This document shows, in pieces, positions 22,681-58,666 of a stretch of DNA of 64,000 nucleotides; position 1 is the stretch's first letter, and the number at the start of each line of letters is the position of its first letter. The notes under the pieces are model-generated. The model saw only the letters and a program-made list of their open reading frames with translations, searched no databases and was not told the DNA's origin. The stretch comes from an uncultured Gemmataceae bacterium (GTDB taxonomy: Bacteria > Planctomycetota > Planctomycetia > Gemmatales > Gemmataceae): positions 2,688,001 through 2,752,000 of the forward strand of contig CAVVPN010000003.1 in NCBI GenBank assembly GCA_963750165.1, written 5' to 3'. The position numbers were made by a program, and so were the translations under genes.

Positions 22681-22696
22681 CGCATAAAACATGCCA
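22681..22696 (-). promoter_or_regulatory. sigma54-type promoter for the GT9-heptose operon
   Basis: Minus strand TGGCATGTTTTATGCG (GG-N10-GC). Confidence 0.6.
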
Positions 22697-22802
22697 GAGA
22701 GCGTTCATACCCGGAAACCCGCTATTGCGGCCGTTCCCACCGGTTTTCGACCGCCTTCGGGCTCGGAACGGTCAATACGGCCCGTTTCCAGCCGCGCCGC
22801 AC

Positions 22803-22851
22803 TGTCCGGGCGAGTTGACACACTGGCAACCACTGTAACCCTCGGTTAACA
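22803..22851. promoter_or_regulatory. Two TGT-N12-ACA enhancer-like boxes
   Basis: TGTCCGGGCGAGTTGACA (22803-22820) and TGTAACCCTCGGTTAACA (22834-22851). Confidence 0.6.
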
Positions 22852-24755
22852 GGCCGCCACGGTAGGGGCGGCCAGGTACCGTTCCGCCCAGCGTGCCAGC
22901 ACGAGCAGGCTCCACAGCACGTCGCCGTGCCGGCCGAGGCCCGACCGGTGGGCGCGGTACAACTTCCCGGCCAGTTCCTGGTTGACCAGCGCGGCCACGC
23001 GCGCGCCCGGAGACAGCACGGCATCCTCGAACATTTCGCGCAGCGGCCCGGCCAGCCAGGTGTTGATGGGGATCTCGAAGCCGTGCTTGGGCCGGTTCGT
23101 CACCGCCGGCGGCAAGCGATCCTTGAACGCCTGCTTGAACACCCACTTGGTTTCGCCGCGATGCACCTTCCAGCGCGACGGGATACGGGCGGCCAGTTCC
23201 AGCAGCTCGTGGTCCAGGAACGGCGGCCGCACCTCCAGCCCATTGGCCATGCTGGCGCGATCGACCTTCACCAAAAAGTCATCCGGCAACAGCATGCCCA
23301 CATCCGCGGCGATCATGCCGGCCAGGGGGTCGCGCGGCGGCGCAGTGGCGAACGCCTCCCGGACGATGGCGCCAGGATCACGGCCGTTCAGGGTCGCGGC
23401 CAGGTCCGGGGCCAGCAACCGACGGCGGAGCGGCGGCCGGCACAGGGAGATGGTGTTGGCGTAGGCGGGGCCGGGCTCCAGTGCCAGGTTGGTCAGCAGC
23501 GTCCGCGCCCGCAGACGCCGCGGCAGCCAGTCGGCCTTGGGCCAGACCTGGGCCAGCGGCCCAACCGCCAGTCGTCGGAACCAACCCGGCAGCCAGTCGC
23601 GCAGCGCCGCCTCCTTGAGGTCGTGGGCGTAGCGCGCGTAGCCGCCGAACGCCTCGTCGCCGCCGTCGCCGGACAGCACCACCTTGACATTCCGGCTCGC
23701 CAGCCGCGACACCAGGAAGGTCGGGATGGCCGAGGAGTCCGCGAACGGCTCGTCGTAATACCGGCTCAGGTCGTCGAGCAACTCGGCCGCGTCGGGCGTC
23801 ACCACTTCCTCATGGTGACTGGTGCCGAAGCGCTTGGCCACTTCCCGGGCGTAGGGCAGTTCGCTGAACGCCTCGTCCGCGAAGCCCATCGAGAACGTTT
23901 GCAGCGGCCCCCGGGTCAGGCCGGCGCTGGACGCCACCACGACGCTGGAGTCCAGGCCGCCGCTGAGGAACGCCCCCACCGGCACGTCGGCGATCAGGTG
24001 CAATCGCACCGTCTCCGCTACCTTGCGCGCAGGGCCTCCTGCCACTCCTCCGGCGTGGTCCGCTCGTCCGGCTCGATCCGCAGCTGCCAGTAGCGGCGCG
24101 GCGGGCAGTCGAAGCGCCCCGCCTGGAGCGACAGCACGTGGGCCGGAGGCAATTTCTCGATGTGCTGGAAGATCGACCGGGCGCCTGGGACGACGCCGAA
24201 GGTGAAGTAATCCTCCAGGCCAGCCGGGTCGAGGCCGGTCTGCACGCCGGGGTGGGCCAGGATCGCCTTCAATTCCGAGCCGAACAGCACCTTCTCGGCG
24301 TCGCGGTAGAGGTAGAGCGGCTTGATGCCGAGACGGTCGCGGGCCAGGAGCAGTTGCCGGCGGCGGCGGTCCCACAGCGCGAAGGCGAACATGCCCCGCA
24401 GCCGTTCGACGAGCCGGTCACCTTCTTCCTCGTACAGGTGGACGAGCACCTCGGTGTCGCTGTGCGTGCGGAAGCGGTGGCCCTTGCCTTCGAGCCAGGC
24501 ACGCAACTCCTGAAAGTTGTAAATCTCGCCGTTGAAGATGACCTGGAGCGAGTCGTCCTCGTTGGCGATGGGCTGGTCGCCGCCGGCGAGGTCGATGATC
24601 GACAGCCGCCGATGGACCAGGCCGATCCCCGGCTCGCTCCAGAAACCCGCAGCGTCGGGGCCGCGGTGGGCGATGCTGGCGCTCATCCGCCGCAGCGCGG
24701 CGCGGTCCACGGGGTGTGCAGGGTCAGCGTACAGGACGCCTGCGATTCCACACAT
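22846..24755 (-). CDS. asnB: Asparagine synthase (glutamine-hydrolysing)-like amidotransferase; frameshift at ~24025
   Basis: MCGIAG, HRRLSIIDL, FNGEIYN, LSGGLDSS, SGDGGDEAFGGY, EVRPPFLD. Confidence 0.9.
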
Positions 24756-24790
24756 GCTCGGCTTCCCTTCGGGGAGAAGATAACCTTGTG

Positions 24791-24853
24791 GGTCGGAGCC
24801 CGAGCGCCAGCGCGGGGCAGACTTGGCCCCGCGCTGGCGCTCGGGCTCCGACC
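24791..24853. repeat. REP-like palindrome
   Basis: Perfect 28-bp arms 24791-24818 / 24826-24853. Confidence 0.88.
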
Positions 24854-24858
24854 ATAGT

Positions 24859-25464
24859 TCAACCGGCCGGGGCGGCCTGGGGTTGGTTGCGGTAGCGGAC
24901 CACCCGCGCAGGGGAGCCGACGGCGATGGCGTAGTCGGGGATCGGCCGCGTGACCACCGAACCGGCGCCGATCACGCAATGTTTGCCCACGTCGGCCATG
25001 ATGATGGCGCGGTCGCCGACCCAGGTGTCGCGACCGATGGTGACGTGCGGGAACACGCCGGGCTGCTCCCGCACCGGGATGTCCAGCCGTTCGATGCCGT
25101 GCTGGGCGTTGCCGTTGGTGATCGAAATATGCGAGCCCAGGAGCACGTCATCCTCCAGGGTCACCTCTCCCAGACAGCAGAACAACCCGATGTAGACGTT
25201 CCGCCCCACGACATTGCCGGGATGCGAGAAGACGACGCCGAAACAGATGCAGGAGCCGCGGCCGCAGGGGAACACAAATTGGTAGAAGGCCCGACGCAGG
25301 TAGACGCCCCAGGTGCCGGGCAACAGACTGAACGCCTGCGTCCAGGCCGGGAACGCTCGCCTGGCGCCGCAGAGCAGCCGGGCGGTGTGGTACGCCAGCG
25401 CCGCGGGCAGGACCAGCAGGGTGGCCGACAGTTCCGCGAGCCGTTTCAACAATGCTTTCATCAC
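24859..25464 (-). CDS. Hexapeptide-repeat (LbH) acyltransferase
   Basis: VTIGRDTWVG, VIGAGSVVTRPIP, VGSPAR. Confidence 0.9.
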   Translation of the reverse strand: MMKALLKRLAELSATLLVLPAALAYHTARLLCGARRAFPAWTQAFSLLPGTWGVYLRRAFYQFVFPCGRGSCICFGVVFSHPGNVVGRNVYIGLFCCLGEVTLEDDVLLGSHISITNGNAQHGIERLDIPVREQPGVFPHVTIGRDTWVGDRAIIMADVGKHCVIGAGSVVTRPIPDYAIAVGSPARVVRYRNQPQAAPAG

Positions 25465-25521: not shown

Positions 25522-25537
25522 TGCAAAAATGAGGCCG
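25522..25537 (-). promoter_or_regulatory. sigma54-type promoter (leftward arm)
   Basis: Minus strand CGGCCTCATTTTTGCA (GG-N10-GC). Confidence 0.6.
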
Positions 25538-25717: not shown

Positions 25718-25735
25718 TGTCAACAGCGGTTTACA
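25718..25735. promoter_or_regulatory. TGT-N12-ACA enhancer-like box in the divergent intergenic region
   Basis: TGTCAACAGCGGTTTACA. Confidence 0.65.
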
Positions 25736-25849: not shown

Positions 25850-25865
25850 TGGCCTGAAGTTTGCA
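25850..25865 (+). promoter_or_regulatory. sigma54-type promoter for the exosortase operon
   Basis: TGGCCTGAAGTTTGCA (GG-N10-GC). Confidence 0.7.
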
Positions 25866-26075: not shown

Positions 26076-26981
26076 ATGTTCCGCTGGACGCGACCATCGA
26101 TCCTGATCGGCCTGATCTTGTTCGGGGCGCTCTCCCTGTGGGCGTACTGGCCGACGCTGGAAGAGGTCGCGGAGAAGTGGGCGACCCACGCGATGTACTC
26201 GCACGGCTACCTGGTGCCCGCGTTCTCCCTGTTCCTGCTGTACTTCCGCCGGCAAAAACTCGAAGGTGTCACGCCCCAGCCGAACCCGTGGGGCCTGCCG
26301 GTACTGGTGGTTGGCGTCGCGCTGCACCTGGCCGGCACCTACTACTACTTCGACTATATCAGCGCGCTCTCGCTGCTGCCGGTGCTCGCCGGCCTGGCCC
26401 TGTGCCTCGGCGGCCTGCGGGTGCTCGCCTGGACCTGGCCGTCCGTCGCTTTCCTGGCTTTCATGCTGCCCCTGCCCCACCAGCTGGAAGTGGCCCTGGG
26501 CTCCTCGCTCCAGCGGCTGGCCACGGTCTGCAGCACGTTCCTGTTGCAAACCATCGGCTTCGCGGCCGTCTCGGAGGGCAATACCATCATCATGGAGGAG
26601 GCCCGGGTCGGCGTCGTCGAGGCCTGCAACGGCCTGGGCATGCTGCTGTTGTTCTTTGCCATGACGACCGGCACGGCCATCGTCGTGCGGCGGCCCCTGC
26701 TGGACCGGCTGGTGATCGTCCTCAGTGCCGTGCCGATTTCTCTGCTGGCCAACATCATCCGCATCACCATCACAGCGATGCTGGCGGAATGGCTTGGGGG
26801 CTCGACCGCCGACCTGCTCGCCCACTACTGGGGCGGTTGGCTCATGATGCCCCTGGCCCTGGTCATGCTCTGGGTGGAAGTGAAGATCCTCGACCGGCTG
26901 CTGGTCGAGCGGCTCCCCGAAAAGCAGCTGGAGTTTACCTTGACCGTCCCCGGCCCCACGGAACACGCCGGGGTTTCCTGA
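26076..26981 (+). CDS. Exosortase/archaeosortase family protein
   Basis: YSHGYLVP, multi-TM, catalytic C (VEACNG), R (NIIRI), H (AHYWGG). Confidence 0.92.
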   Translation: MFRWTRPSILIGLILFGALSLWAYWPTLEEVAEKWATHAMYSHGYLVPAFSLFLLYFRRQKLEGVTPQPNPWGLPVLVVGVALHLAGTYYYFDYISALSLLPVLAGLALCLGGLRVLAWTWPSVAFLAFMLPLPHQLEVALGSSLQRLATVCSTFLLQTIGFAAVSEGNTIIMEEARVGVVEACNGLGMLLLFFAMTTGTAIVVRRPLLDRLVIVLSAVPISLLANIIRITITAMLAEWLGGSTADLLAHYWGGWLMMPLALVMLWVEVKILDRLLVERLPEKQLEFTLTVPGPTEHAGVS

Positions 26982-27088
26982 CGCGAATGTGGAGATCAAC
27001 CCTCCTGCCCCGGCGGCCCAGGTCACCCGGCAGGATCTCTGGATAGATGCGTCGGTGCGGCACCCCCAAACCGACAACGGAGCGCTTC

Positions 27089-29422
27089 ATGTTTGACCCA
27101 AACGCTCAGCCCGTCGTCCCCCAGCCCCAGGTGGGGGCGCCCATCGAGTCGCCTGGCGGCGCGGTCGTCGTGCGCAAACTCAAGCCGCACGGCCCGCTCG
27201 CCGCCCCCCAGGCCGCCACCGGGACGGGGTTTAACGTCTTCGCTCTGCTGCGCGCCCTGCAGCGCCGTTGGCTGCTGGCCGTCTCCCTGGGCGTGCTCTT
27301 CGCCGGCAGCGTGGCCGGGGCGGTCTGGCACTTCTCACCGCCCCGCTTCACCGCGCGGACGATGATCCACGTCGCCGCCAACCGCCCGCACGTCCTGATG
27401 CAGATGGACCGCGTCAATGACTTCGCAAGTTACCAGCGCACCCAGATCGCGCTGGTGAAAAGCCGCCTGGTGCTCAACCGCGCCCTCAACAACCCCAACG
27501 TGGCGGCGCTGTCGGTCGTCAAGGAACATGTGGACCCCATTCTCTGGCTCGAAAAAGAGATCCAGGCCGACTTCCTCACCGCCCCAGAGGTTCTCAAGAT
27601 CTCCATGAACGGGGAAAAGGGCGAGGAGCTGAAGGTCGTGGTCGATGCGGTTCGCGAATCCTACGTGAAGGAGATCGTCAACAAGGAGTTCAACCAGCAA
27701 GAGATGCGCCTGACCAAGCTGCGCGAACTCTTTGCCGAGGCCGACAAGCAGTTGCAGGAAAAGCGCCGCGTCCTCAAGTCCATGTCCGAAGACCTTGGCT
27801 CCTCCAAGGATCCCAAGGTGATGGAGAAGACCCAGCTCATGGCCTTCCGCCAACTCGACGGCATTCAGGCGCAACTGCTCACCGTCCAGGCCAAACTGCG
27901 CCAGGCGCAGATGGAAGCGGTCGCGGCCCCGGCCCAGAAGAAGGACGGCAAGGACGGTAAGGGCGGCGAAGCGGCTCAGAAGGATTGGGCCGCCCTGCTG
28001 TTCCCGGCCCCCAAGGAAGAAGTGGACGACTTCCTCCCGCTGCCAGAGCACAAGATTCAGGAATGGATTGACAAGAACCCGAAGATCCAGGATCTCGAGA
28101 AGGAAATCGCCCGGCTGGACAGGATCGCCAAGCAGATCCACAAAAACGCCCACAACGCGGAAAAGGAACCCGTCTACAAGGCGGCGCTGGCCGCACAGGT
28201 GGTGGCCAAGAAGCACCTGGCCGACACGCGGGCCCAACTGCGTCAGGAGCTGGCCCAGAAGGTCCGCGGGGATGCCCACCCGGAGATCAAGGGCAGCAAT
28301 CAGTCCTACACCCAGAAACAGATCGCGGTGCTGGAAATGCAGGACAAGTGGCTGACGCAGGAGGTCAATAACTACCTGAAAAAGTTCCAGGGGCTGAGCA
28401 AGCGCCGCGTCGATGTGGAGTGGCTGCGCGACGAGATCACCCTGGCGGACGAGATCACCCGCAAGATGGCCAGTCAGCTGCAGATTCTGCAGGTGGAGCA
28501 GAAGGCTCCGGAACGGATCACCGTCATGGAGGAAGCGATCGTCCTGCCCGACCAGGACAGTCCGCTGAAGAAGGCCGGCATCGCCGGCGGCGCCATCTTC
28601 TTCCTGGTCCTGCTGGGCGTCGCTTTCCTGGAATACCGCACGCACAAGATCAACGGCGCCGACGATGTGGTCAACGGCCTGAAACTGCGACTGGTCGGCG
28701 CCATCCCCGCCCGGGTCAAGCGCGGCTGGGGCGGGCTCAACTCGCGGAAGAGCCAGGCCCGCTGGCAGCAGCGCCTCACCGAGTCCATCGACGCGACGCG
28801 CACCATGCTGCTGCACACCGCCAGCGTCGAACCGCTCCGCATCGTCATGGTGACCAGCGCCGTCGGCGGCGAAGGCAAAACCACCCTCTCGGCCCACTTG
28901 GCGGTCAGCCTGGCCCGCTCCGGCCGGCGGACGCTGCTCATCGACGGCGACCTGCGGCGGCCGTCGCTCCAGAAGCTGTTCAACCTGCCGCTGACGCCCG
29001 GCCTGAGCGAAATCCTCCGTGGCGAGACCGCCCTGGCGGCCGTCGTCCGCCCCGGCCCGGTCGAGGGGTTGTCGATCCTGACCGCCGGGCGCAGTGACCC
29101 CCTGGCCATCCAGGCCCTGTCGCGCAAGCCGCTGGAAGACCTCTTCCAGCTGGTCCGCGAGCAGTACGACTTCGTGATTGTGGACTCGGCGCCGGTGCTG
29201 CCGGTGGCCGACTCCCAGTTGCTCGCCCAGCACACGGACGCCGTGATTTTCTCGGTGCTCCGCGAGGTGAGCCGCCTGCCGCTGGTCTATGCCGCCTACG
29301 AGCGCCTCAAGATGCTGCGCACGCGCATCCTGGGGGCGGTGGTCAACGGCACCCAGGACAGCATCCACGGCGGCCATTACAGCTACGAGAGTAACACGCC
29401 CCCGGCCTCGGCCGCCTCCTGA
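27089..29422 (+). CDS. wzc: Polysaccharide co-polymerase / BY-kinase (Wzc-like)
   Basis: Two TM helices around a coiled coil; SAVGGEGKT, LLIDGDLRRP, VIVDSAP; short Tyr tail. Confidence 0.88.
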   Translation: MFDPNAQPVVPQPQVGAPIESPGGAVVVRKLKPHGPLAAPQAATGTGFNVFALLRALQRRWLLAVSLGVLFAGSVAGAVWHFSPPRFTARTMIHVAANRPHVLMQMDRVNDFASYQRTQIALVKSRLVLNRALNNPNVAALSVVKEHVDPILWLEKEIQADFLTAPEVLKISMNGEKGEELKVVVDAVRESYVKEIVNKEFNQQEMRLTKLRELFAEADKQLQEKRRVLKSMSEDLGSSKDPKVMEKTQLMAFRQLDGIQAQLLTVQAKLRQAQMEAVAAPAQKKDGKDGKGGEAAQKDWAALLFPAPKEEVDDFLPLPEHKIQEWIDKNPKIQDLEKEIARLDRIAKQIHKNAHNAEKEPVYKAALAAQVVAKKHLADTRAQLRQELAQKVRGDAHPEIKGSNQSYTQKQIAVLEMQDKWLTQEVNNYLKKFQGLSKRRVDVEWLRDEITLADEITRKMASQLQILQVEQKAPERITVMEEAIVLPDQDSPLKKAGIAGGAIFFLVLLGVAFLEYRTHKINGADDVVNGLKLRLVGAIPARVKRGWGGLNSRKSQARWQQRLTESIDATRTMLLHTASVEPLRIVMVTSAVGGEGKTTLSAHLAVSLARSGRRTLLIDGDLRRPSLQKLFNLPLTPGLSEILRGETALAAVVRPGPVEGLSILTAGRSDPLAIQALSRKPLEDLFQLVREQYDFVIVDSAPVLPVADSQLLAQHTDAVIFSVLREVSRLPLVYAAYERLKMLRTRILGAVVNGTQDSIHGGHYSYESNTPPASAAS

Positions 29423-29436
29423 GCGACGGAGACGTT

Positions 29437-30087
29437 ATGTTGCGAGTGTTTCTCCTGCTGGCGGCCGGCCTCTTGCTGGCGGCCGATGGTCTGGTCGGCG
29501 GCCTGTGGACGAACCGCTGGCAGACCTCCCCGGAACTGGCCGCCGCGGTGGCCCGGATGGACAAGGTGCCCATGAACTTCGGCGCCTGGCGCGGCAAGGA
29601 GGGCCCCGACGTGGAGGACTGGGCAGTCAGAGGGTCGCGGATTTCCGGCTTCGCCGCACGCCGCTACGAGCGCCGTGACGGCAGCGTGGTGAACGTCCTG
29701 CTGGTCTGCGGCCGTCCGGGCCCCATGTCGGTTCACACGCCCGAAGTCTGCTACCGCGGCGTGGGTTACCAGATTCTCAGCGGCCCCGACCACTGGCCCC
29801 TGAAGGCCGCCCCGGGCGGGATGGACGCGGAGTTGTGGAAGATCAAGGTCGGGAAACCCGACGCCGCCACGCCCATGCAGATGTCCGTGCTGTGGTCCTG
29901 GACCACCGACGGCACCTGGCAGACGCCGAATTCGCCACGCTTCACGTTCGCCGGCAAGCCCGTGCTGTACAAACTGTACGTGACGCACGAGATCGTCAAC
30001 GGCGACAAGAAAGCCGACGAAGTGTGTCGCGAATTCCTCCGAGACTTCTTGCCGGAACTCAACCCGGTGCTGTTCCGCAAGCGCTGA
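29437..30087 (+). CDS. Exosortase-associated EpsI family protein
   Basis: N-terminal TM, VHTPEVCY; in operon with the exosortase. Confidence 0.8.
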   Translation: MLRVFLLLAAGLLLAADGLVGGLWTNRWQTSPELAAAVARMDKVPMNFGAWRGKEGPDVEDWAVRGSRISGFAARRYERRDGSVVNVLLVCGRPGPMSVHTPEVCYRGVGYQILSGPDHWPLKAAPGGMDAELWKIKVGKPDAATPMQMSVLWSWTTDGTWQTPNSPRFTFAGKPVLYKLYVTHEIVNGDKKADEVCREFLRDFLPELNPVLFRKR

Positions 30088-30155
30088 ACTCTCCAAGGTC
30101 TGACTCGTTCATTGACATGCGCGGTGCCTAACTTTTTCCGCATAAGGTGTTCTGG

Positions 30156-30941
30156 ATGCTTACCAACAGTGACTCGCACCCTACCCCCCCCCTGGTGATC
30201 CGGTTGGAGCACCCGCGGCGCCATCCAGCGGTCCCGCAGCGCCCGGAGGGGTGGTATCACTCCGTGAAGGCCGTGCTGGATTTCGGCTGCGCCCTGGCCC
30301 TGCTCGTGCTGGCGGCGCCGCTCATCCTGCTGGCGGCGCTGGCGGTCAAGTTGACCTCACGGGGGCCGGTGTTTTACTCGCAGGTGCGTTTGGGGCGCGG
30401 CGGTCGGCCGTATACCATTCACAAGATTCGCACCATGCGGCACGACTGCGAGAAGCACACCGGCGCGCGCTGGAGCACTCCGGGCGACAACCGCATCACC
30501 CCCGTCGGCCGCTTTCTGCGCAAGACGCACATTGATGAGCTGCCGCAGTTGTGGAACGTCCTGCGGGGCGAGATGAGCCTGGTGGGGCCGCGGCCCGAGC
30601 GCCCGGAGTTTGTGCCGCGCCTCGAAGAAGCCATCCCGCGCTACCGCGAACGACTCCTGGTCCGCCCCGGCCTGTCCGGCCTGGCCCAGGTGCAGCTGCC
30701 GCCCGACAGCGACCTCGACAGCGTGCGCCGCAAGCTGGCCTACGACCTATACTATGTGGAACGGGTGGGCTTCTGGCTCGACCTGCGCATCCTGCTCGGC
30801 ACGGCCCTGTACGCCCTGAGCCTGCCCGCCACGGTGGCGCGCGTGTTGTTCGGCCTGCCGGGCGGCCGGGTCGTCGAGGAGGCGTACGAAAGTACGGCGG
30901 CACCGGTCCCCGAGCCGACCCCCGAACTCCAACCAGCTTGA
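30156..30941 (+). CDS. Priming phosphoglycosyl (sugar) transferase
   Basis: [37 protein letters not shown]. Confidence 0.92.
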
Positions 30942-30963
30942 ACTCGCTGGGGCCTTCCGACGC

Positions 30964-32193
30964 ATGGATTCCTCGATTACCTCCGGCGACGGCCCGGAAC
31001 TGCTGTACCTGGTCCACCGCTTCCCCTATCCACCCGACAAGGGGGACCGCATCCGGGCCTTCCAGTTGCTCCGCTACCTCTGCCGCCGTGCCCGCGTCCA
31101 CCTGGCCTGCCTGGCGGACGAGCCGGTGGACCCCGAGGCCCGCGCTACCCTGGAGCGCTTCTGCGTGCGCCTGGCGGTCCAGCCCACCGGCGGTGTGCTG
31201 CGCTGGGCGAATAGCCTTCACTCCCTGGCGACCGGCCGAACCGCCACCGAGGGCGCGTTCCGGTCGCGCGGCCTGGAGGCCACCTTGCTGGATTGGGCCC
31301 GGCAGACTCGCTTTCACACCGTGCTGACCTCCGCCTCCAGCATGGTGCCGTATCTCCGCCTGCCGGGGTTGCGCGACGTGCCCGCGGTCGTGGACCTGGT
31401 GGACGTGGACAGCCAGAAATGGCTCGACTACGCCGCCGCCGACCGGCCGCCGCGGTCCTGGCTCTACCGCCTGGAAGGCCAGCGCCTGCGCCACCTGGAA
31501 CAGGACTTGCCGGCCCAGGTCCGGGCGGTGGCACTGGTCACCCAGGCCGAGGCCGCCCTGTACGAGCAGTTCTGCGCTCCGGGCCGGGTGCAGGTCGTCG
31601 GTAACGGCGTGGACCTGGACTACTTCCAGCCCCAGGATGTGGCCGAGGAACGGCGCTGCGTCTTTGTGGGCGCGATGGACTATCGGCCCAACGTGGAAGG
31701 CGCGTGCTGGTTCGCCCACGAAGTCTGGCCGGCGCTCCACCACCGCCACCCGGACGCTCGCTTCGCCCTGGTGGGCCGCAGCCCCACGCCTGCCGTGCGG
31801 CGCCTGGCGGAGTTGCCCGGCGTCGAGGTGGTGGGCCCGGTCCCGGACGTGCGCCCCCACCTGGCCCGGGCGGCCGTTGCGGTCGTACCGTTGCACATCG
31901 CCCGCGGTTTGCAGAACAAGGTGCTGGAGGCACTGTCGATGGGCAAGGCGGTCGTGGTCTCGCCGCAGGCGATTCAGGGCCTCCAGACCCAGCCCGGCCG
32001 GCACCTGCTGACCGCCGCCTCCCCGCAGGAATGGCAGACGACCGTCGCGGACCTGTTCGACCAGCCTGAACGGCGGCGGCAACTCGGCGACGCGGGGCGG
32101 CGCTTTGTCCTGAACCACCATCACTGGGATCGCTGCCTGGAGCCGATGGCCGCGCTGCTCGGCCTGCCCACGACCGCGGCCGCGGCGGTGTAG
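30964..32193 (+). CDS. GT4 glycosyltransferase (TIGR03087-like), paralog 2
   Basis: HRFPYPPDKGDRIR, DVDSQKWLDYA, GAMDYRPNVEG, ARGLQNKVLEA. Confidence 0.9.
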   Translation: MDSSITSGDGPELLYLVHRFPYPPDKGDRIRAFQLLRYLCRRARVHLACLADEPVDPEARATLERFCVRLAVQPTGGVLRWANSLHSLATGRTATEGAFRSRGLEATLLDWARQTRFHTVLTSASSMVPYLRLPGLRDVPAVVDLVDVDSQKWLDYAAADRPPRSWLYRLEGQRLRHLEQDLPAQVRAVALVTQAEAALYEQFCAPGRVQVVGNGVDLDYFQPQDVAEERRCVFVGAMDYRPNVEGACWFAHEVWPALHHRHPDARFALVGRSPTPAVRRLAELPGVEVVGPVPDVRPHLARAAVAVVPLHIARGLQNKVLEALSMGKAVVVSPQAIQGLQTQPGRHLLTAASPQEWQTTVADLFDQPERRRQLGDAGRRFVLNHHHWDRCLEPMAALLGLPTTAAAAV

Positions 32194-32252
32194 CGCCGGC
32201 GTGCCCCTCCTGAGACTGGCACGGCCAGTCCTCGGCTGTCGCCGCCTGACCG

Positions 32253-36865: not shown

Positions 36866-36887
36866 CCCACGGAGCCGGCGCGGACCG

Positions 36888-49287: not shown

Positions 49288-49351
49288 GGCCGCGCCCGGT
49301 TCGTGCCCGCACGGTGGGAAACTTCAACCCTTGAAACGTCGAGGTAGGTTC

Positions 49352-50281: not shown

Positions 50282-50334
50282 GTAGTTGGGCCGTTGTTTC
50301 CCGATCCGTATCTCGAGCCAGCGTGAGGTGCCTA

Positions 50335-51165
50335 GTGACTTCGAGTGCGCAACCCCAGACGGACTCACGACCCCTTGAGGCCAGCCTGAACCCGGGCGCC
50401 GCGGCGCACCTGCCGCGGTCAACCGATCAAGCCGAAGCCCGAGTGCGCGGGCTGCTGGAGCAGGTCTACGGTGTCGCCCGCGACGCAGGCGATGACGCCT
50501 TCGTGCGCGCGGGCATGAGCGTCTCCGAGCTGGTGCGGCTGTACGAACTGGTCAGCGCCAATGGCTGCCGCTCCGCTCTGGAAGTAGGCATGGCCACCGG
50601 CACCAGTTCCCTGGCGATCTGCGCGGCGCTTGGGGACAACGGCGGCGGGCGCCTGGCGTCGATTGACCCGTTCCAGTCGTCGGCCTCCGGCTACGCTTCG
50701 GCAGGGGTCGAGAACCTGCGGAAAGCTGGGTTCGAGGGCGCGCACCGCCTCATCGAGCGGCCCGACTATCTCGCCCTCCCCGAATTGCTCGCTCAGGGGG
50801 AGCGGTTCGATTTCATCCTGATCGATGGCTGGCATTCGTTCGACTTCACCCTCGTGGACCTGTTCTACGCGGATCTGCTGCTGCGGACGGGTGGGGTGCT
50901 GGCGTTTCACGACACCACGGCCCCCCAGGTTTACAAGGCGGTTCGCTTCCTGGAACTGCACAAGCCGTACGAACGCCTGTCCCCGCCGTTGGCGAGGCAT
51001 ACCCCGTCTCTGGTCGGCAAGGTGGCGCGGCGCGTGCGGACCTGGCTGCGAGGCCCGGCTGCCCTGGCCGGGGCGAAGGAACGGCGTGAGAAATGGCGGA
51101 TGTTGGCCGCTTACCGCAAACAGGCCGATTCGCAAGTCGCCGAGGACCACGGGACACGGTTTTAG
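50335..51165 (+). CDS. Class I SAM methyltransferase (Methyltransf_24-like; start approximate)
   Basis: LEVGMATGTS, IDPF, LIDGWH, FHD. Confidence 0.85.
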   Translation: MTSSAQPQTDSRPLEASLNPGAAAHLPRSTDQAEARVRGLLEQVYGVARDAGDDAFVRAGMSVSELVRLYELVSANGCRSALEVGMATGTSSLAICAALGDNGGGRLASIDPFQSSASGYASAGVENLRKAGFEGAHRLIERPDYLALPELLAQGERFDFILIDGWHSFDFTLVDLFYADLLLRTGGVLAFHDTTAPQVYKAVRFLELHKPYERLSPPLARHTPSLVGKVARRVRTWLRGPAALAGAKERREKWRMLAAYRKQADSQVAEDHGTRF

Positions 51166-51214
51166 GCCCCGCGTTCGCGAACACCGCCGGCGGATTGGTG
51201 AAGGAACCGTCGTC

Positions 51215-52177
51215 ATGCTCCACCGACTCAGGAAACACCTGGCGTACAGCTACTTCAAGTATCGCACCGGGGGGATTTGCTCCACCCCGCCGCTGCCCTG
51301 CGACCCCGCCGCCGGCTGCGAAGTCCACACCATGCTCGGGGCGCGCGACCTGCCGATGTACCTGCTGGCGGTCAAGTCGCTGCTGCGCTTCGGGCCGCCG
51401 GTCGGTGTCGTCATCCACTCCGACGGCACCCTGACGAGCCGTGAGGTCAACCTGCTCCGCAATCAACTCCCGGGCGCCCGACTCGTGGACGCCGCCGAGG
51501 CCGACGCCCGCGCCCGCACCGCCCTGGGGGCCGACTCCTTCCTGTGGCGCTGCCGCGGCTTCGATGTCAACTACCGGCGGCTGATCGACACGGAGTTGTG
51601 GTGCAACACCCCCAAGCGGATCATCATGGACTCCGACGTCCTGGTACTGCGGCCGCCGCAAGAGGTCATCGACTGGGTCGAGCGCGGCGACGGCCCTTTC
51701 CTCATCGGCGTTCCGCCGAAGAACGCCGGCCCCACCGAGAAGGACACCGACCTGTCCAAGGTCCACGTCCAGGGCGTCTTCCGCGTCAAGTTGCAGGAGA
51801 TCGCCGCGGGCGTGGGGCTGCCGGCCGAGTTCCTGGACGGCACCACCGCCGGCTTCTACGGCTGCACCAACGAACTGTCGCTCGACCGCGTGGAGCGGCT
51901 CGTCAAAACGTGCCTGGACCTGAAGCTGCCACTGCATCACTGGGGCAGCGATCAGTGCATGGTCATCTACCTGCTCTCGGTCACCCGGGCGGTCCGGCTC
52001 AACCCGGAGTTGTATCTCAACTTCTGGCCGGAGGATCTGCCGCGCGTCGCCGGCGCCCACGTCGTCCACTTCCTGGGCACCAACCGGTTTTACAAGCATG
52101 TGTATACCAGCGAGGCGGTGAAAGTCGTCCGGGCGCTCCAGGCCGGGCAGGCGGTCCCGGCCCGGAATCCAGCGTGA
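51215..52177 (+). CDS. Nucleotide-diphospho-sugar transferase-like (GT-A, GT8-like) protein
   Basis: HSDG, IMDSDVL (DxD), SDQ, VVHFLG. Confidence 0.65.
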   Translation: MLHRLRKHLAYSYFKYRTGGICSTPPLPCDPAAGCEVHTMLGARDLPMYLLAVKSLLRFGPPVGVVIHSDGTLTSREVNLLRNQLPGARLVDAAEADARARTALGADSFLWRCRGFDVNYRRLIDTELWCNTPKRIIMDSDVLVLRPPQEVIDWVERGDGPFLIGVPPKNAGPTEKDTDLSKVHVQGVFRVKLQEIAAGVGLPAEFLDGTTAGFYGCTNELSLDRVERLVKTCLDLKLPLHHWGSDQCMVIYLLSVTRAVRLNPELYLNFWPEDLPRVAGAHVVHFLGTNRFYKHVYTSEAVKVVRALQAGQAVPARNPA

Positions 52178-52192
52178 CCGAGCGAGAGGCGC

Positions 52193-54223
52193 ATGGCTAA
52201 CACTCTGCTGATCGAACCCCCGGCGAACACCGTGGCCGCGAAGGTCCCCGGGTTCCGCTGTGACGACCACGGCAAGCCGGTCCTCCCGGCGTCGCCGGAG
52301 GCGCTGTACGCCTTCGGCGACCTGATCCGCCGCACCGAACAGCTGATTCTGGCGCAGTTCGGCCGCGGTCTGGTGTCCGGCACCACGCACACCTGTCTGG
52401 GCCAGGAATTGTGCCAGATGGCGGTGGTGCGCGCCCTCGACCACCCCGCCGATGCGGTGCTGTCCAACCACCGCAACCACGGCCACTTCCTCACCTACTC
52501 CGGCGAGTTCGTCGGCCTGGTGGCGGAGGTCATGGGCCGGCAGCGCGGCGTGTGTGGCGGCCGCGGCGGCAGTCAGCACCTGGCCTATCGCCACTTCCAC
52601 AGCAACGGCGTGCAGGGCGGTATGGCCGGCATCGGCGTCGGTCTGGCCCTGGCCCGCCAGCGCCGCCGGGAGCGGGCGGTTGTCGCCGTCCTGGTCGGCG
52701 ACGGCACCCTGGGCGAAGGGCTACTGTACGAGAGCCTGAACCTGGCCGGCGTCTGGCAGGTGCCGGCCCTGTTCGTGGTGGAGCACAACGGCATCGCCCA
52801 GACCACCTGCACCGCGGACACCGTCGCCGGCACCATTGAGGACCGCGGTCGTGCCTTCGGGCTGCCGGTCTGGCGGCTCGACGACGCCGACCCGGACCTG
52901 TTCCACCGAGCCGAGGCCGTCGTCGCCCAGGTGCGCGACAGCGGCCGGCCCGGCTTCCTGGTCATCGACACCCGCCGCCTGGGGCCGCACAGCAAGGGCG
53001 ATGACCTGCGCCCCGCCGCGGAGATGGAGGCCATCCGGACGCGCGACCCGCTCGCCGCCCTGGGGCGGCGCCTCCCCGAGTCGCTGCGCCGCGGCATCGA
53101 GGAGCGCAACGCCGCCTTCCTGCAACAGGTCGAAGCCGAGGCCGCCGCCTCCCCCGAGGCCCGCGACCAGGAGCCACCGCGGCACCTCTTTACCGCCGCC
53201 GCCGAGCCCGCCCCGGCACCGCCGCCGAGCCCGCCCCGGGCCAACGTCCGCGCCGCGCTCAACGCCGGCCTGCGCCACCTGCTCGACAGCGCGGATGACA
53301 CCCTGCTGCTCGGCGAGGACCTGCACGACCCCTACGGCGGCGCCTTCAAGGTGACCGCCGGCCTGTCCACCGACTTCCCAGGACGCGTCCTGTCCACGCC
53401 GATCAGCGAGGCCGGCATCGCCGGTGTGGGCATCGGCCTGGCCCTGGCCGGCCTGCGGCCCGTCGTGGAAGTCATGTTCGCGGACTTCCTGACGCTGTGC
53501 CTGGATCAGCTGTACAACCACGCGGTCAAGTTCCCCGGCGTCTTCCCCGACCTGCGCGTGCCGCTGGTGGTGCGCGCCCCCAGCGGCGGACGGCGCGGCT
53601 ACGGCCCGACGCACAGCCAGAGTCCGGAGAACCTGTTCACCGCCGTCCCGGGCTTGACGGTGGTCTTCGGCAGCCACCGCCACGACAACGGCCGCCTGCT
53701 GGTCAACGCCAGTCAGGGTTGGCCCTACCCGGTGCTATTCTTCGAGCACAAATTGCTCTACAGCGAGACGCAGGCCGCGGGCGATTACCGGCTGCTGGCC
53801 GCCGTCGCCACGGACGCCGCGGCGGAGCTGTTCCCCACTCTGGTGCGCGGCGGCGGCCAGCCCGACGTGACCGTGCTGACCTATGGCGGTATGCTGCCGG
53901 TCGTGGAGGAAGCGGTCCGCCGCCTGGAGGAGCGCGAGGAACTCGCTGTTGAGGTGGTGGTGCCGGCGCTGCTGGCGCCGTTCCCGCGCACGACGCTGGT
54001 CGGCCATCTGCGCGACCGGCCGCGCGTGGTGGTGGTGGAGGAAGCTCATCATCAGTTCGGCTACGGCGCGGAAGTGCTGGCCAACCTGCTGGAGGCCGGC
54101 TTCCGTGGTCGAGCGCTGCGGGTCGGCACACCACCGGTGCCCCTGGCTTCGGCCCGCAGCCTGGAGAAACAGCTCATCCCGGACGCGGAGGCGGTCGCCC
54201 GCGCGGTGCTGCGACTGTTCTGA
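52193..54223 (+). CDS. Fused E1 alpha+beta, ThDP-dependent 2-oxoacid dehydrogenase/transketolase-like
   Basis: GTTHTCLGQE, GDGTLGEG...HN, TPISEAG, EVMFADF, YGPTHSQ. Confidence 0.92.
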   Translation: MANTLLIEPPANTVAAKVPGFRCDDHGKPVLPASPEALYAFGDLIRRTEQLILAQFGRGLVSGTTHTCLGQELCQMAVVRALDHPADAVLSNHRNHGHFLTYSGEFVGLVAEVMGRQRGVCGGRGGSQHLAYRHFHSNGVQGGMAGIGVGLALARQRRRERAVVAVLVGDGTLGEGLLYESLNLAGVWQVPALFVVEHNGIAQTTCTADTVAGTIEDRGRAFGLPVWRLDDADPDLFHRAEAVVAQVRDSGRPGFLVIDTRRLGPHSKGDDLRPAAEMEAIRTRDPLAALGRRLPESLRRGIEERNAAFLQQVEAEAAASPEARDQEPPRHLFTAAAEPAPAPPPSPPRANVRAALNAGLRHLLDSADDTLLLGEDLHDPYGGAFKVTAGLSTDFPGRVLSTPISEAGIAGVGIGLALAGLRPVVEVMFADFLTLCLDQLYNHAVKFPGVFPDLRVPLVVRAPSGGRRGYGPTHSQSPENLFTAVPGLTVVFGSHRHDNGRLLVNASQGWPYPVLFFEHKLLYSETQAAGDYRLLAAVATDAAAELFPTLVRGGGQPDVTVLTYGGMLPVVEEAVRRLEEREELAVEVVVPALLAPFPRTTLVGHLRDRPRVVVVEEAHHQFGYGAEVLANLLEAGFRGRALRVGTPPVPLASARSLEKQLIPDAEAVARAVLRLF

Positions 54224-54300
54224 CGCTGGCCCAGCCCGTAGGATACACGGACAGGGCCTCCCACCCCGTCGCCGAACCAGACACTCCGGAACAGACCGTC

Positions 54301-55395
54301 ATGCCTTACCCGCTGCGTGTACCGCGTGTCAACAACAATGACGACTCCGCCCGGCTGCTGCGCGTGCTCGCCCAGAAGGGCGAGGCCGTGCGGCGCGGCG
54401 CCGTGGTCGCGGAGATCGAAACGGACAAGTCGGTGGCCGACGTGGAGGCCGAGCAGGACGGCTACGTCCTCCAGATCGTCGGCGTCCCCGGTCAGGAAGT
54501 GGCCGTCGGTGGCGTTCTGCTCTGGCTGGGCGACCGGCCCGATGAGCCCGTGCCGGCGGCGGACGAGTCGGGGCCGACGCCGGTTGCCGCCGCCAGCGCG
54601 GAGCCCACGGCCAAGGCCCGGGCCTTGCTCGCCGAGCACGGCCTGCGGACCGAGGAGGTGCCGGCCACGGGAGAGCGGCTGACCGTCGCAGACGTGGAGG
54701 CGTTCCTGGCGCGGCGTGCCGCCGGGGCAGGGCCGGCGCCGGCGCCGAAGTCCAAAGGGCCGGGGCCGCTCGCCGCCGGGGAGACGCGGCCGCTGACGGT
54801 GGAGGAGCGCGGCATGCTTCACACCGTCACCTGGCACCGCGACGAGGCCGTGGCTACTTACCTGGAGATGGAGTACGACCCGAAGCCCTGGGATGCGCAC
54901 GCCGCCACATTCGCGACGGAACGCAAGTTGCTGCTCAGTCCGCTGCTGCCCTTGCTGGCCCACCGCCTGGCCGAGGTGGCGCGGGCCACGCCCCGGGTCA
55001 ACGCGACCCTGGTGGACGGGCAGTTTTACCAGTATCGGCAGGTGAACCTTGGCTTCACGGTGCAGGCCGGTGAGCTACTTTACCTGGTAGTGGTGCAGGA
55101 CGCCGGCGCCCTGGACGCGGCCGGCTTCGTCAACCGCCTGGGGGAGCTGCAACGCCGGGCGGTGGCACGGAAGCTGCGGGCCGAGGAGACGCAGGGCGCG
55201 ACGGTCGGCTTCACCAGCATGGCCCGCTGGGGCGTGCGGCAACACGTGCCGGTGCTGCCGCCCTACTGTTCGCTGATGGTGGCCCATGCCGCGCCGCGCC
55301 AGGGCGGGCCGGCGGTGCTGGGCGCCAGCTACGACCACCGCGTGCTGAGCGGTTTCGACGTGGTGCGCGTGCTCCAGCAACTGACCCAACCGTGA
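54301..55395 (+). CDS. E2-like dihydrolipoyl acyltransferase (lipoyl, binding and divergent catalytic domains)
   Basis: EIETDKS lipoyl motif; SYDHRVLSG. Confidence 0.85.
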   Translation: MPYPLRVPRVNNNDDSARLLRVLAQKGEAVRRGAVVAEIETDKSVADVEAEQDGYVLQIVGVPGQEVAVGGVLLWLGDRPDEPVPAADESGPTPVAAASAEPTAKARALLAEHGLRTEEVPATGERLTVADVEAFLARRAAGAGPAPAPKSKGPGPLAAGETRPLTVEERGMLHTVTWHRDEAVATYLEMEYDPKPWDAHAATFATERKLLLSPLLPLLAHRLAEVARATPRVNATLVDGQFYQYRQVNLGFTVQAGELLYLVVVQDAGALDAAGFVNRLGELQRRAVARKLRAEETQGATVGFTSMARWGVRQHVPVLPPYCSLMVAHAAPRQGGPAVLGASYDHRVLSGFDVVRVLQQLTQP

Positions 55396-55410
55396 GGCCG
55401 GGGGGAACCC

Positions 55411-55677
55411 ATGAACTTGCAACGCGATGCCGTCAAGGCTGCCATCCACGGCCGCGTGGTGGAGCTGGCGCGCCGGCTCGGCGGCGACCCCAGCGGGTTC
55501 ACCGACGATGACCTGTTGCCAGCCACGGGCCTGCTCGACTCCGCGGCACTGCTGGAACTGGTGGCGTGGTACGAGGCCGAGTACCGCCTGACGCTGCGGC
55601 AGGAGGACATCAACATCGACAACCTGGGGTCGGTCAACGCCATGACGGACTTCGCACTTGCCCGTCGGGCGGACTGA
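55411..55677 (+). CDS. Acyl carrier protein
   Basis: 88 aa acidic protein, GLLDSAALLELV phosphopantetheine site. Confidence 0.85.
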   Translation: MNLQRDAVKAAIHGRVVELARRLGGDPSGFTDDDLLPATGLLDSAALLELVAWYEAEYRLTLRQEDINIDNLGSVNAMTDFALARRAD

Positions 55678-55686
55678 GGCGCCACC

Positions 55687-56705
55687 ATGCAACGCGAACT
55701 CATCCAGATCCCGGAAAGCACCGGCCCACGTTGTCGGTGGTGATCCACACAGAAGAAGAATTCGAGTGGGGCCGGCTCGACCGCACGGCTACTGCCGTCA
55801 CCCACATGGACCACATCCGCCGCGTCCAGGACCTGTTCGACGAGCAGGGGATTGTGCCGACCTACGTGGTGGACTACCCGATTGTGGACCAGGACGCCGG
55901 CTGTCGTCCGCTGCTGGACTTCGCCGCCGATGGCCGCGCCGTGATCGGCGCCCACCTGCACCCGTGGGTGTCGCCGCCGCACGTCGAGGCGCTGAACTTC
56001 TTCAACTCGTATCCTGGCAACCTGCCCTGCGATCTGGAGCGCGAGAAGCTGACGCAGCTGACGGAGCGCATCGCCGCGCGCTTCGGTGTTCGGCCGACGG
56101 TGTACCTGGCCGGCCGCTACGGCTTCGGCCCCAACACCGCGGCGCTGCTGGAGGACCTGGGCTACGAGGTGGACGTCAGCGCCATCGTGCCGCTGGACTT
56201 CAGCGGCGACGGCGGGCCGGATTATTCGGGCTACACCAACCATCCGTACTGGTTCGGCCGGCGCCGCCGGCTGCTGGGACTGCCCTGCACCGGCGACTTC
56301 GTGGGCTGGTTGCCCGGCGGCAAACGGCGGCTCCACTGGCTGGCCTCGCGGCCCCTGGGGGAGCGGTTGCGGCTGCGCGGCGTGCTGGCGCGGCTCCGGG
56401 CGGTGGAGCGCATGAGCCTGACCCCCGAGGGGCACACCAACGCGGAACTGCGCCGCCTGACGCGCTCCCTGCTGCGCCGCGGCTTCCGCACCTTCGTGTT
56501 CAGCTTTCACTCGCCGTCCATCCAGCCCGGCTGCACCCCCTATGTCCGCGACGCCCACGAACTGCGGACCTTCCTTGACAACTGCCGCGATTACTTCACC
56601 TTCTTCCTGAAGGAGCTGAACGGCGTCGCCCGGACGCCGTTGCAGATTCGTGCTGACCTGGAGCAGCCCTGTGCGGTCGCGGCACCGCTGGCCGTCCAGT
56701 CGTGA
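55687..56705 (+). CDS. Polysaccharide deacetylase (WalW-like); frameshift at ~55713
   Basis: ATG 55687 (MQRELIQIPE) joins VIHTEEEFEW, GAHLHPW, AGRYG, FSFHSPS after a one-base shift in an A run. Confidence 0.82.
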
Positions 56706-56714: not shown

Positions 56715-57500
56715 TCACTGCTTCTGAATGTACCACTTCTGATAATTGTCGCGCTCGATCTCGACCGGCCGCTCCGGCCTGTCCGCCAGGAACTCGTCGA
56801 TGGCCTGGTTGCAGCCCGGCCACGGTGGGTCATTGTACTCGTCGAAAAGGATGATGCCCCCAGACGACAGGCGCGGATAAAAGAACTCCAGGCACTCCTT
56901 GTAAGACTGGTAGATGTCGCAATCCAGGTGGACGAAGCAGAACCGACGGTCGGCGAAGGCAGGCAGGGTGGCCGCGAAATAACCCCTGGTGACGCGAACC
57001 ACGTCCCCCAGCTGGAGCCGTGCGATCTTTTCCAGGACCGTCTCGTAGGAGGTTTCGTTGAAGCCGCCGACGCGCTTGTCGCTGCTGGCGGCGCCGCCGA
57101 GGCGGATGTCAATGTTGACGGCCTCGTCGAAACCCTCGAAGGAGTCGAAGCCGAGGACGGCCTTGGCGAGTTGATGCTGCTTGACGTACAGGCCCAGCGC
57201 CAGCAGACTCGACGCCCGGAAGACGCCGCACTCGGCCACGTCGCCGGGCACCGCGGCGGTGCGCCCCAGCAGTTCAAACAGGATGTTGATGTTCGACTCG
57301 CCCTCGGGCGACTTGACCGGTTTGGGGCGGACGGCGCGCGGCACCTTCACCTCGAGCAGTCGCGCCCACCGGGCCGGGCAGCGCTCCACGGGGGTGTTGC
57401 GCAGGACGGCGTACGCGACCGCCTGGGCCGTGTGCCGCGCGCCTGTGCGGTGCCAGAGCCAGCTTCGCAGCCGTTTCCACAGAGGTTTGGGTTCACTCAT
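56715..57500 (-). CDS. TylF/MycF-type sugar O-methyltransferase
   Basis: AECGVFR, FDSFEG, HLDCDIY, FDEY, WPG. Confidence 0.88.
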   Translation of the reverse strand: MSEPKPLWKRLRSWLWHRTGARHTAQAVAYAVLRNTPVERCPARWARLLEVKVPRAVRPKPVKSPEGESNINILFELLGRTAAVPGDVAECGVFRASSLLALGLYVKQHQLAKAVLGFDSFEGFDEAVNIDIRLGGAASSDKRVGGFNETSYETVLEKIARLQLGDVVRVTRGYFAATLPAFADRRFCFVHLDCDIYQSYKECLEFFYPRLSSGGIILFDEYNDPPWPGCNQAIDEFLADRPERPVEIERDNYQKWYIQKQ

Positions 57501-57527
57501 GGTCGCCGCCTCCCGCCCGGCCTGGCG

Positions 57528-58382
57528 TTACACGTTCAGGGCCACAATCTCCGAATACAGGTTCGCCATGTCCGCTTCGCCAAGGGTGTCGCTGCGGTAC
57601 ATCTTGTCAGGGAAGCCACCCACCTGGGCCGACAACCGCGGTCGGCGCGGCAGGAACCGCGATTCGATGCGCGTGCTCAGCATACCGTGCCGCAGCAGGA
57701 AAAAGCGCCCCAGGGTGAAGCGGTAGCGCAGGAACAGTTCCGGATCACTGACGGCCAGCACCGTCGCGCAGGGCAGTCGTTTCAGCAGTCCCTTGCGGTA
57801 GACGACGTGACAGAAGGCGCCCGGCCGACCCACGGCCACGTGCCGTAGCCAGTGCAGGTGGCGGTGGTCGCGGAAGACCTGGACGTCCGCGGGCGCCAGC
57901 ACGCGCTCCAGCGCCGCCGGGTCGGTCACCACGCGCACGCCCGGAATCCAGCCCGGCAAGTTGGGCAGCACTGTCATGCGCACGTCCATCGGCTTGAACT
58001 TGAGGAAGCGCAGCGCCCCCGCCACCACCGCAGTCGGTGTCAGGTCGGTGAAGTGAAATCCTGGTTGGGCGACGAGCGTCATCGCCAGGCGCAGGCTGTG
58101 GGCGCGGTACGGCTCCAGGACGCACCAGCTGGTGATGTTGCAGAACCGCTCCGGTTGACCGCGAATGACCCGCTCCGCGTAGATGGCGCCGATGCCGCCG
58201 CCGATCTTGCCTTTGGCGTCGCGGAGCAGAAAGCCGTGATTGGGCATCGCCAGCCGCCAGTCCTGACGGAACGCGGTCACCCAGTCCGCCACGGCAATCC
58301 GCGGGTTCAGGTGCTCGTGCAGGAACGCGCAGAACTCCGGCAAGTCCTCGTCGCGGATGGGGTGGATCGTCGGCAGCGACAT
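57528..58382 (-). CDS. GNAT-like hypothetical acyltransferase
   Basis: IRDEDL, FCNITSWCVLEPYRAHS resembles GNAT motif A. Confidence 0.55.
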   Translation of the reverse strand: MSLPTIHPIRDEDLPEFCAFLHEHLNPRIAVADWVTAFRQDWRLAMPNHGFLLRDAKGKIGGGIGAIYAERVIRGQPERFCNITSWCVLEPYRAHSLRLAMTLVAQPGFHFTDLTPTAVVAGALRFLKFKPMDVRMTVLPNLPGWIPGVRVVTDPAALERVLAPADVQVFRDHRHLHWLRHVAVGRPGAFCHVVYRKGLLKRLPCATVLAVSDPELFLRYRFTLGRFFLLRHGMLSTRIESRFLPRRPRLSAQVGGFPDKMYRSDTLGEADMANLYSEIVALNV

Positions 58383-58504
58383 GCGTGCAGCAGTCCGAAG
58401 GGTGATGGCATACGTCGGGGCCGGGGGCAGTGTATGAATCCTGCTGTCCCAAACAAGAGGGAAACACCCCCATCAGGCAGGTTTACAAAGTGTCTGGCGT
58501 GCAG

Positions 58505-58522
58505 TGTCAATCTCGGTTTACA
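58505..58522. promoter_or_regulatory. TGT-N12-ACA enhancer-like box
   Basis: TGTCAATCTCGGTTTACA, with extra GGTTTACA (58480) and GGGTTACA (58526) half-sites. Confidence 0.65.
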
Positions 58523-58650
58523 ACAGGGTTACACCTGTCGGGAGGGGCACCGGTTCGCCACCCAGGCCCCTCCACATTGTATTTTCTAAGACCTGTTCCT
58601 GGAAGAAGTTATAGAAAAATCGCCGCTTCTGATCTGGTGAGAGCGTGGCA

Positions 58651-58666
58651 CGGCACCAACTTTGCC
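58651..58666 (+). promoter_or_regulatory. sigma54-type promoter
   Basis: CGGCACCAACTTTGCC (GG-N10-GC). Confidence 0.68.

Follow-up and report, generated by a model that had tools for sequence, protein, structure and literature searches.

A probable sigma-54 activator site in Gemmatales: an 18-bp palindrome before surface polysaccharide and exosortase genes

Control of exopolysaccharide (EPS) by sigma-54 is already known, and BerB is reportedly one activator of biofilm polysaccharide. FleQ is described as an enhancer-binding activator controlling biofilm polysaccharide whose cyclic di-GMP (c-di-GMP) residues include Glu330 and Arg334 (PMC10723142), and for Desulfovibrio the EPS regulons of DVU0110 and DVUA0057 are listed together with TGT-N9/11/12-ACA motif groups (PMC4641369). 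The PEP-CTERM box of Haft et al. 2006 (PMC1569441) is a 17-nt motif with TTTACA at its end; it lies upstream of PEP-CTERM genes, at 62.8 nt from the sigma-54 site that follows, and in that account was found only in Proteobacteria, with further regulators left to be found. RpoN dependence of a PEP-CTERM gene has experimental backing in a proteobacterium (PMC9850573), and two further comparable sites are the TyrR box, TGTAAA-N6-TTTACA, and the GcsR box, TGTAACG-N4-CGTTCCG (PMC4894688). Here we describe an 18-bp palindromic box upstream of sigma-54 promoters in an exosortase-A-type polysaccharide locus of an uncultured Gemmataceae bacterium (assembly GCA_963750165.1), within a window of 64,000 nucleotides (the whole stretch analysed, C3:2688001-2752000, as contig:position) of a 9.6-Mb genome with 67% GC. 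This box probably serves as the upstream site from which a sigma-54 regulon of surface polysaccharide and exosortase genes is activated, and it is likely read by a clade of activators with two branches, A and B.

The original prediction placed five GG-N10-GC promoters in the window, each at the start of an operon and preceded by a related box. All five sites lie where they had been placed, between genes and with scores of 10.7–17.4 (Table 1), and the five boxes were confirmed with distances that agree within 1 bp, box and promoter being 106–180 bp apart in the window. The intergenic placement held, but the sites at 22696 (-) and 35736 (+) are internal promoters within same-strand gene runs and do not begin isolated operons. 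Each of the five 18-mers has one exact occurrence (starts 22803, 22834, 25718, 35603 and 58505), and boxes serving two sides, as the one at 25718 does, were also seen in loci of relatives (L143, L144). The genome possesses rpoN, on which the prediction depended, as a single match over the cut-off (C4:507571). None of its 24 sigma-54 activators is encoded inside the window, in agreement with the predicted single activator encoded elsewhere.

Enrichment of the motif, the check that had been proposed, gave a divided outcome: on its own, bare TGT-N12-ACA did not reach significance (13 occurrences in the window, eight of them besides the five boxes, where 29 sites also score at least 10 with the sigma-54 matrix), whereas the pairing of box and promoter was significant (binomial p 3e-10). 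A first box matrix, built from the five window boxes and run genome-wide, returned eight matches scoring at least 20, four being training sites, and seven of the eight had a sigma-54 site scoring at least 11 in range in comparison to 3.2% of random positions. The new matches were C3:2803591, C3:2824851, C11:2234267 and, lacking a promoter, C1:116105; C3:2798651 was also recovered at a lower score. All three new modules (box plus promoter) on C3 fall in a second exosortase locus 47–73 kb beyond the window, with strong sigma-54 sites 159–164 bp downstream of each box, and precede a glycosyltransferase run, two giant open reading frames (3889 and 2950 codons) and a deacetylase-TPR-epimerase-exosortase run. 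The box-plus-promoter pattern gave eight matches in the genome and the reversed control one. Of the 19 boxes scoring at least 16 genome-wide, seven, including four window boxes, lie within the two EPS loci against 0.18 expected (binomial p 3e-10). With a second box matrix, made from 23 sites of other genomes that had been picked with the first, so that its results are partly circular, 10 of 767 intergenic sigma-54-like sites had a box of at least 16 upstream and one of 767 had one downstream; eight of the ten belong to the two EPS loci.

The box has the consensus TGT(C/A/T)AAC-N4-GTT(G/T/A)ACA and lies 88–161 bp from its promoter (mean 127, SD 20; search range 70–200). When the spacer was varied among 2300 sites, only the 18-bp box was enriched, with 11 occurrences upstream and one downstream, the 17-bp form giving none and two, respectively. 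The inverted repeat at 35595-35620 can also be read as a wider TGT-N20-ACA, but lengths of 19–22 bp had no clear enrichment and this reading was discarded as a general motif. At five of eight EPS promoters a second site or half-site lies 31–35 bp from the first, about three helical turns. Tandem sites at that interval are expected for activators that load as several dimers.

An alternative is that a repressor or some other factor that is not an activator binds the palindrome, or that it consists of two back-to-back sigma-70 -35 hexamers, with the sigma-54 sites incidental. Most boxes do contain TTGACA, 9 of the 19 best boxes lack a sigma-54 site in range, and the box at C11:2234267 adjoins a sigma-70-like promoter of a PEP-CTERM gene. 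However, a TAxxxT -10 element 15–19 bp downstream was found in none of 18 box orientations tested, by which back-to-back sigma-70 promoters were rejected, and in many genomes the boxes lie upstream and not downstream of -24/-12 sites. We therefore consider this alternative very unlikely, and several of the nine promoterless boxes may be chance matches or -35 hexamers.

Conservation in relatives also speaks for an activator site of a sigma-54 regulon. The strict 18-bp module, counted where the left half of the box fits TGTHAA, was present in 29 copies spread over 18 of 150 further genomes of the order, and the strict 17-bp module in nine copies in nine genomes, four of them in one genus without an exosortase match. 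The strict module was found in none of 115 genomes outside the order (a class-wide sample) and at none of 239 promoter-like sites at 51 more distant EpsI loci. Thirty-seven modules in other genomes, with target names mostly assigned by eye and some of them checked, precede exosortase (8), wzm-like (3), upxY (3), deacetylase (2), PEP-CTERM-like (2) and Flp pilin (2) genes, and in single cases a FemAB-like protein, an epimerase, a glycosyltransferase, a TPR protein, a giant protein and a branch A activator; the other 11 precede other or unidentified genes. Approximately 25 of the 37 thus stand before EPS, exosortase, PEP-CTERM-like, upxY, TPR or Flp genes, a count that shows target types and not module frequency, as many of these loci were chosen by pattern match. 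In this genome the module is absent at the Flp, upxY and other three exosortase genes.

Short motifs that meet by chance where intergenic DNA is AT-rich might account for the bare matches in the window and for an AT-rich genus (g8) that matches both the 17- and the 18-bp pattern. The clustering (p 3e-10), the out-of-sample matches, the spacer specificity and the orthologous positions in other genomes make this extremely improbable. Out-of-sample sites, spacer specificity and conservation in relatives likewise uphold the predicted regulon with a shared enhancer, which is very likely real.

Two activators, of branches A and B, are located inside box-bearing loci of relatives, and no other activators were found there. 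This genome carries three members of the clade (A1, A2 and B; Table 1), all with GAFTGA and HTH_8, and an ISR(M/V)xLYKK helix is common to A and B. In a quick, midpoint-rooted tree without four of the 24 activators (no Walker A match) and without any PrsR sequence, A and B group together on a single branch, separate from the genome's 17 other activators (SH-aLRT 100); no authentic PrsR for this tree was present among 25 of 62 plasmid records listed. Scoring of 10 candidates per genome gave A in 16 and B in 94 of the 150 other genomes of the order. In 9 of those 16 genomes, homologues of the EPS genes described here are present within ~10 kb of A (a tenth match, an ABC ATPase, was excluded), and none of 29 B loci had EPS-gene homologues within 1.5 kb. 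A box stands within 400 bp upstream of the B gene in 12 of 29 loci, in comparison to 3 of 29 downstream and none of 13 loci of other activators; two rows beyond these 13 proved to be B-clade fragments.

A or B is present in 16 of the 18 genomes in which strict modules occur. The case for A as sole activator was weakened by all ten fully checked genomes having B without A, most of them with modules, and the case for B as sole activator by two genomes (G109, G145) that carry A and modules without B. Since genomes with modules have A only, B only or both, the clade is named and not one gene, and it is quite likely the activator of the regulon. B is probably an ancestral self-regulating master and A probably a paralogue travelling with EPS loci. 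The named homologues of one activator carry the Gemmataceae label. A1 and A2 form a convergent pair of close paralogues (C3:681600-684648; L199:5600-8648), in which A2 seems to retain little of the receiver-like domain and may be constitutively active. As a separate observation, a variant box starting TGTTGC, with a sigma-54 site 88 bp away, stands ahead of a small conserved open reading frame (C4:413879-413999, minus strand; L267:7879-7999); modules of this type with 118–120 bp recur in genus g28 and genome G147, and the variant is possibly a conserved target of branch B.

The enhancer and promoters could be real and the activator nevertheless another of the genome's 21 outside A and B, for example C3:840080 or C3:357434, the two that come closest to the PrsR model. 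TGT...ACA half-sites at 9, 11 or 12 bp are common to several unrelated activators (PMC4641369), the A and B genes of this genome have no adjacent box, and only A and B were profiled across genomes. Nevertheless, a box was found upstream at none of the 13 loci of other activators, the activators in box-bearing loci are A or B only, and by eye no EPS genes surround C3:840080 or C3:357434, so that we judge another activator unlikely.

Several results weigh against this account of the box and its A/B activators. The module is patchy, being within 1.5 kb at only 4 of 29 exosortase loci of relatives, and only 16 of 97 carriers of A or B have a strict module, in comparison to 2 of 53 genomes that carry neither (p 0.03, related genomes not being independent). 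Further B loci reach the box threshold in only 3 of 21 cases, although about half retain a TGTAAAC half-site, distant B-like loci in none of six, and for A just 2 of 17 loci have a box upstream, the lack of a box near this genome's own A and B genes adding to these. An integration host factor (IHF) site between enhancer and promoter is common but not required in sigma-54 enhancer systems; the best IHF matches in this genome's enhancer-promoter spacers mostly have 2–3 mismatches and none is clear, and none of the three HU/IHF-family genes of the genome exceeds an IHF cut-off. Similar motifs also need not imply similar DNA-binding domains (PMC4641369). Finally, the sigma-54 matrix was composed from the general consensus, and the partial circularity of the second box matrix, which extends to the spacer comparison and the clustering of the 19 best boxes, counts in the same direction.

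The A/B family has a degenerate receiver domain, predicted not to be phosphorylated, and is probably kinase-independent. Pfam Response_reg had no match in A or B, and the first 140 residues of A1 are predicted to adopt a receiver fold (pLDDT 90). His56, which by alignment to the canonical receiver pattern we take to replace the phospho-Asp, is retained in 13 of the 15 A rows shown in the alignment, and the conserved Lys is lost. Phosphorylation therefore appears unlikely, and as a guess the input may be a partner protein or a ligand on the pseudo-receiver. A small gene whose beginning resembles a receiver domain often directly precedes B (L222, L235, L236, L238, L244 and L245) and is a candidate partner. 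FleQ, likewise an enhancer-binding protein for exopolysaccharide, ranks second by sequence among the relatives of A1 with a solved structure; a FleQ-type c-di-GMP pocket in A1 was rejected, as Glu330 and Arg334 are not conserved in the A1 alignment, R138 and R144 fall outside the aligned stretch, and R185 is kept but also serves ATP binding.

The original prediction also linked the locus to PrsR, and this link is reduced to analogy. As in PrsR/PrsK/PrsT systems, a palindromic enhancer ending in TTTACA lies upstream of a sigma-54 promoter in an exosortase/EPS context with sites that are sometimes repeated, and a PrsR/PEP-CTERM-box system transferred into Planctomycetes and diverged would have in its favour this half-site ending, the sigma-54 logic and the exosortase-A-type families (TIGR03087, 03006 and 03019, all above cut-off). 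However, membership was rejected on scores: the best PrsR (TIGR02915) match has 433.6 bits against a cut-off of 502.6, A and B have 261–288, and the best PrsK (TIGR02916) match has 115 against 300 bits and covers the kinase core only, while none of 201 genomes of the phylum exceeded the PrsR cut-off (seven candidates scored per genome). For PrsT (TIGR02917), one second-locus TPR protein, the single protein scored, reaches 59.6 against 312. The site itself differs, with 18 and not 17 bp, 127 +/- 20 bp to the promoter in comparison to 62.8 +/- 10.6 (PMC1569441), a planctomycete host, and a position mainly before EPS/exosortase operons and not PEP-CTERM genes. Of the PEP-CTERM genes themselves, only 1 of 18 has a consensus box upstream. 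We consider a diverged PrsR system highly improbable; in its working the regulon resembles the PEP-CTERM-box system, but by these tests it is not a member of it.

The 17-bp shape of the PEP-CTERM box was taken from the text of PMC1569441 and from a metagenome scan with spacers of 4–7, of which 80 of the 123 stretches returned were examined. The 17-bp form was present in 10 of 11 examined stretches with a downstream PEP-CTERM-like gene. The 18-bp form was present in 13 of the 80, and its geometry is therefore not confined to planctomycetes. A 17-bp box with a sigma-54 site also precedes non-PEP-CTERM genes (efflux, transport etc.) in 45 of 55 matches (L271-L350), a site therefore used well beyond PrsR.

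The TyrR and GcsR boxes share the 18-bp geometry and a nearly identical half-site, and GcsR has tandem 18-bp sites at a sigma-54 promoter (PMC4894688), but the targets here are EPS and surface genes and not amino-acid metabolism. Unlike TyrR, A and B have a receiver-like N-terminus and score 193–216 bits against a TyrR cut-off of 576. The ligand-binding N-terminus of TyrR is ACT-PAS. Desulfovibrio DVU0110 and DVUA0057 resemble the present case in sigma-54 activation of EPS/biofilm operons and in TGT/ACA half-sites that occur 12 bp apart, and differ in being listed as two-component response regulators and in belonging to another phylum (PMC4641369).

The polysaccharide locus spans from ~15 kb to the window end and encodes an exosortase, Wzc, EpsI, a sugar transferase, TIGR03087 glycosyltransferases, Wzm/Wzt, an O-ligase, amidotransferases, heptose enzymes and many methyltransferases (Table 1). 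The nearest named relatives of its EpsI-like protein are from Gemmataceae and other Planctomycetia. The genome has five exosortase genes and at least 18 PEP-CTERM matches (150 of 199 candidates scored), and a Cys-Arg-His exosortase together with PEP-CTERM proteins marks a PEP-CTERM/exosortase sorting system. At least five genes of the window are split across two frames (20148-21382, 21395-22692, 22846-24755, 32201-33927 and 59063-60963; TIGR03087, GT9, amidotransferase, VanZ and UbiA), for which assembly indels are likelier than pseudogenes, as several activators elsewhere in the genome are also split. Within the polysaccharide operon (52193-55677) are also genes for a dehydrogenase E1 with alpha and beta parts fused, for an E2-like protein and for an acyl carrier protein, which may provide an acyl decoration. 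McsA-like and McsB protein-arginine kinase genes at 8017-10240 have no relation to the regulon. A third polysaccharide locus (C3:2955000-2971000) has the genome's upxY gene at its head, and no box/sigma-54 module was found upstream of it.

A second motif, CGGTGCCC, was found in the 1.2 kb before 10 of 18 PEP-CTERM matches, one of them probably by chance, against ~1.4 expected. It often follows a pyrimidine run directly downstream of sigma-70-like promoters (e.g. L009, L010) and is also present in the leader of the 22696 promoter (window 22617-22610, minus strand). Rfam gave no matches in the window, L009 or L010. The motif may be where a NusG paralogue pauses transcription or is loaded, or it may belong to a second regulator.

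Table 1. Sigma-54 promoters, enhancer boxes, target runs and candidate activators (window positions unless a contig is given)
Feature	Position	Strand	Remarks
Target run 1: GT9 heptosyltransferase-like (two frames), TIGR03087 glycosyltransferase (two frames), GSU2086 family, RfaE/GmhB heptose enzymes	15176..22569	-	
Sigma-54 -24/-12 site ahead of heptosyltransferase-like/TIGR03087/heptose-synthesis run	22681..22696	-	score 12.1; first ATG 22569
Weak proximal enhancer box	22803..22820		score 9.0; 106 bp to 22696 promoter, 31 bp to strong box
Strong distal enhancer box	22834..22851		score 21.1; 137 bp to 22696 promoter
Target run 2: hexapeptide acetyltransferase, TIGR03108-like amidotransferase (two frames)	22846..25464	-	
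Weak sigma-54 site ahead of hexapeptide acetyltransferase/amidotransferase run	25522..25537	-	score 10.7 (weakest); shares 25718 box at 180 bp
Enhancer box of divergent region	25718..25735		score 23.8; 114 bp ahead of exosortase promoter
Sigma-54 site ahead of exosortase-wzc-epsI-sugar transferase	25850..25865	+	score 16.0; same layout before exosortase in relatives
Exosortase	26076..26981	+	TIGR02602 above cut-off; C184, R229, H250 motifs intact
Wzc-like tyrosine kinase, EpsI-like, sugar transferase, TIGR03087 glycosyltransferase, VanZ (two frames), PMT-like	27047..35498	+	
Enhancer box 35603-35620 with extra perfect half-site 35595-35601	35595..35620		score 16.7
Sigma-54 site ahead of wzm/O-ligase/wzt and modification genes	35736..35751	+	score 17.4; wzm-like genes follow module in L079, L088, L147
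Wzm/Wzt ABC export, O-ligase, pyruvyl-, methyl-, glycosyltransferases, dehydrogenase E1/E2-like, acyl carrier	35828..56705	+	
Enhancer box 58505-58522 with extra half-site 58481-58487	58481..58522		score 24.6; 35 bp register
Sigma-54 site ahead of flippase-like/UbiA/PMT/amidotransferase run	58651..58666	+	score 11.5
Flippase-like, UbiA (two frames), PMT-like, amidotransferase	58788..64000	+	continues past window end
Activator B	C11:2042702-2044153	+	clade member in this genome
Activator A1	C3:682957-684648	-	clade member in this genome
Activator A2	C3:681600-682841	+	clade member in this genome, short N-terminus

In the mechanism that we propose, A/B dimers would bind the tandem sites and assemble an AAA+ ring, for which GAFTGA is intact, and the DNA would loop over about 105–165 bp between enhancer and promoter. 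Sigma-54 promoters would thereby be opened at eight places in two loci, and polysaccharide synthesis, export and decoration, the exosortase and giant secreted proteins would be switched on jointly.

Literature searches returned no paper describing such an enhancer or activator clade for Gemmatales. Studholme and Dixon 2004 are said to have dealt with Pirellula activators, which may bear on the novelty of branch B. A survey of sigma-54 promoters in Planctomycetia makes no mention of PEP-CTERM or exopolysaccharide in the sections consulted (PMC12316311). For Gemmatales, the analysis now provides the site, the regulon and named candidate activators.

In summary, by analogy the A/B family would likely fill the role that PrsR is thought to have in Proteobacteria. 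More tentatively, the attached lifestyle of Gemmatales could be run by a kinase-free switch, in which a clade of pseudo-receiver sigma-54 activators reading a TyrR-shaped site would co-activate polysaccharide, exosortase, giant adhesins, UpxY antiterminators and Flp pili. On that reading, exosortase loci would have recruited sigma-54 activators with near-identical half-sites independently of the proteobacterial PrsR. The site and the candidate activators make the control of planctomycete polysaccharide and adhesion testable.

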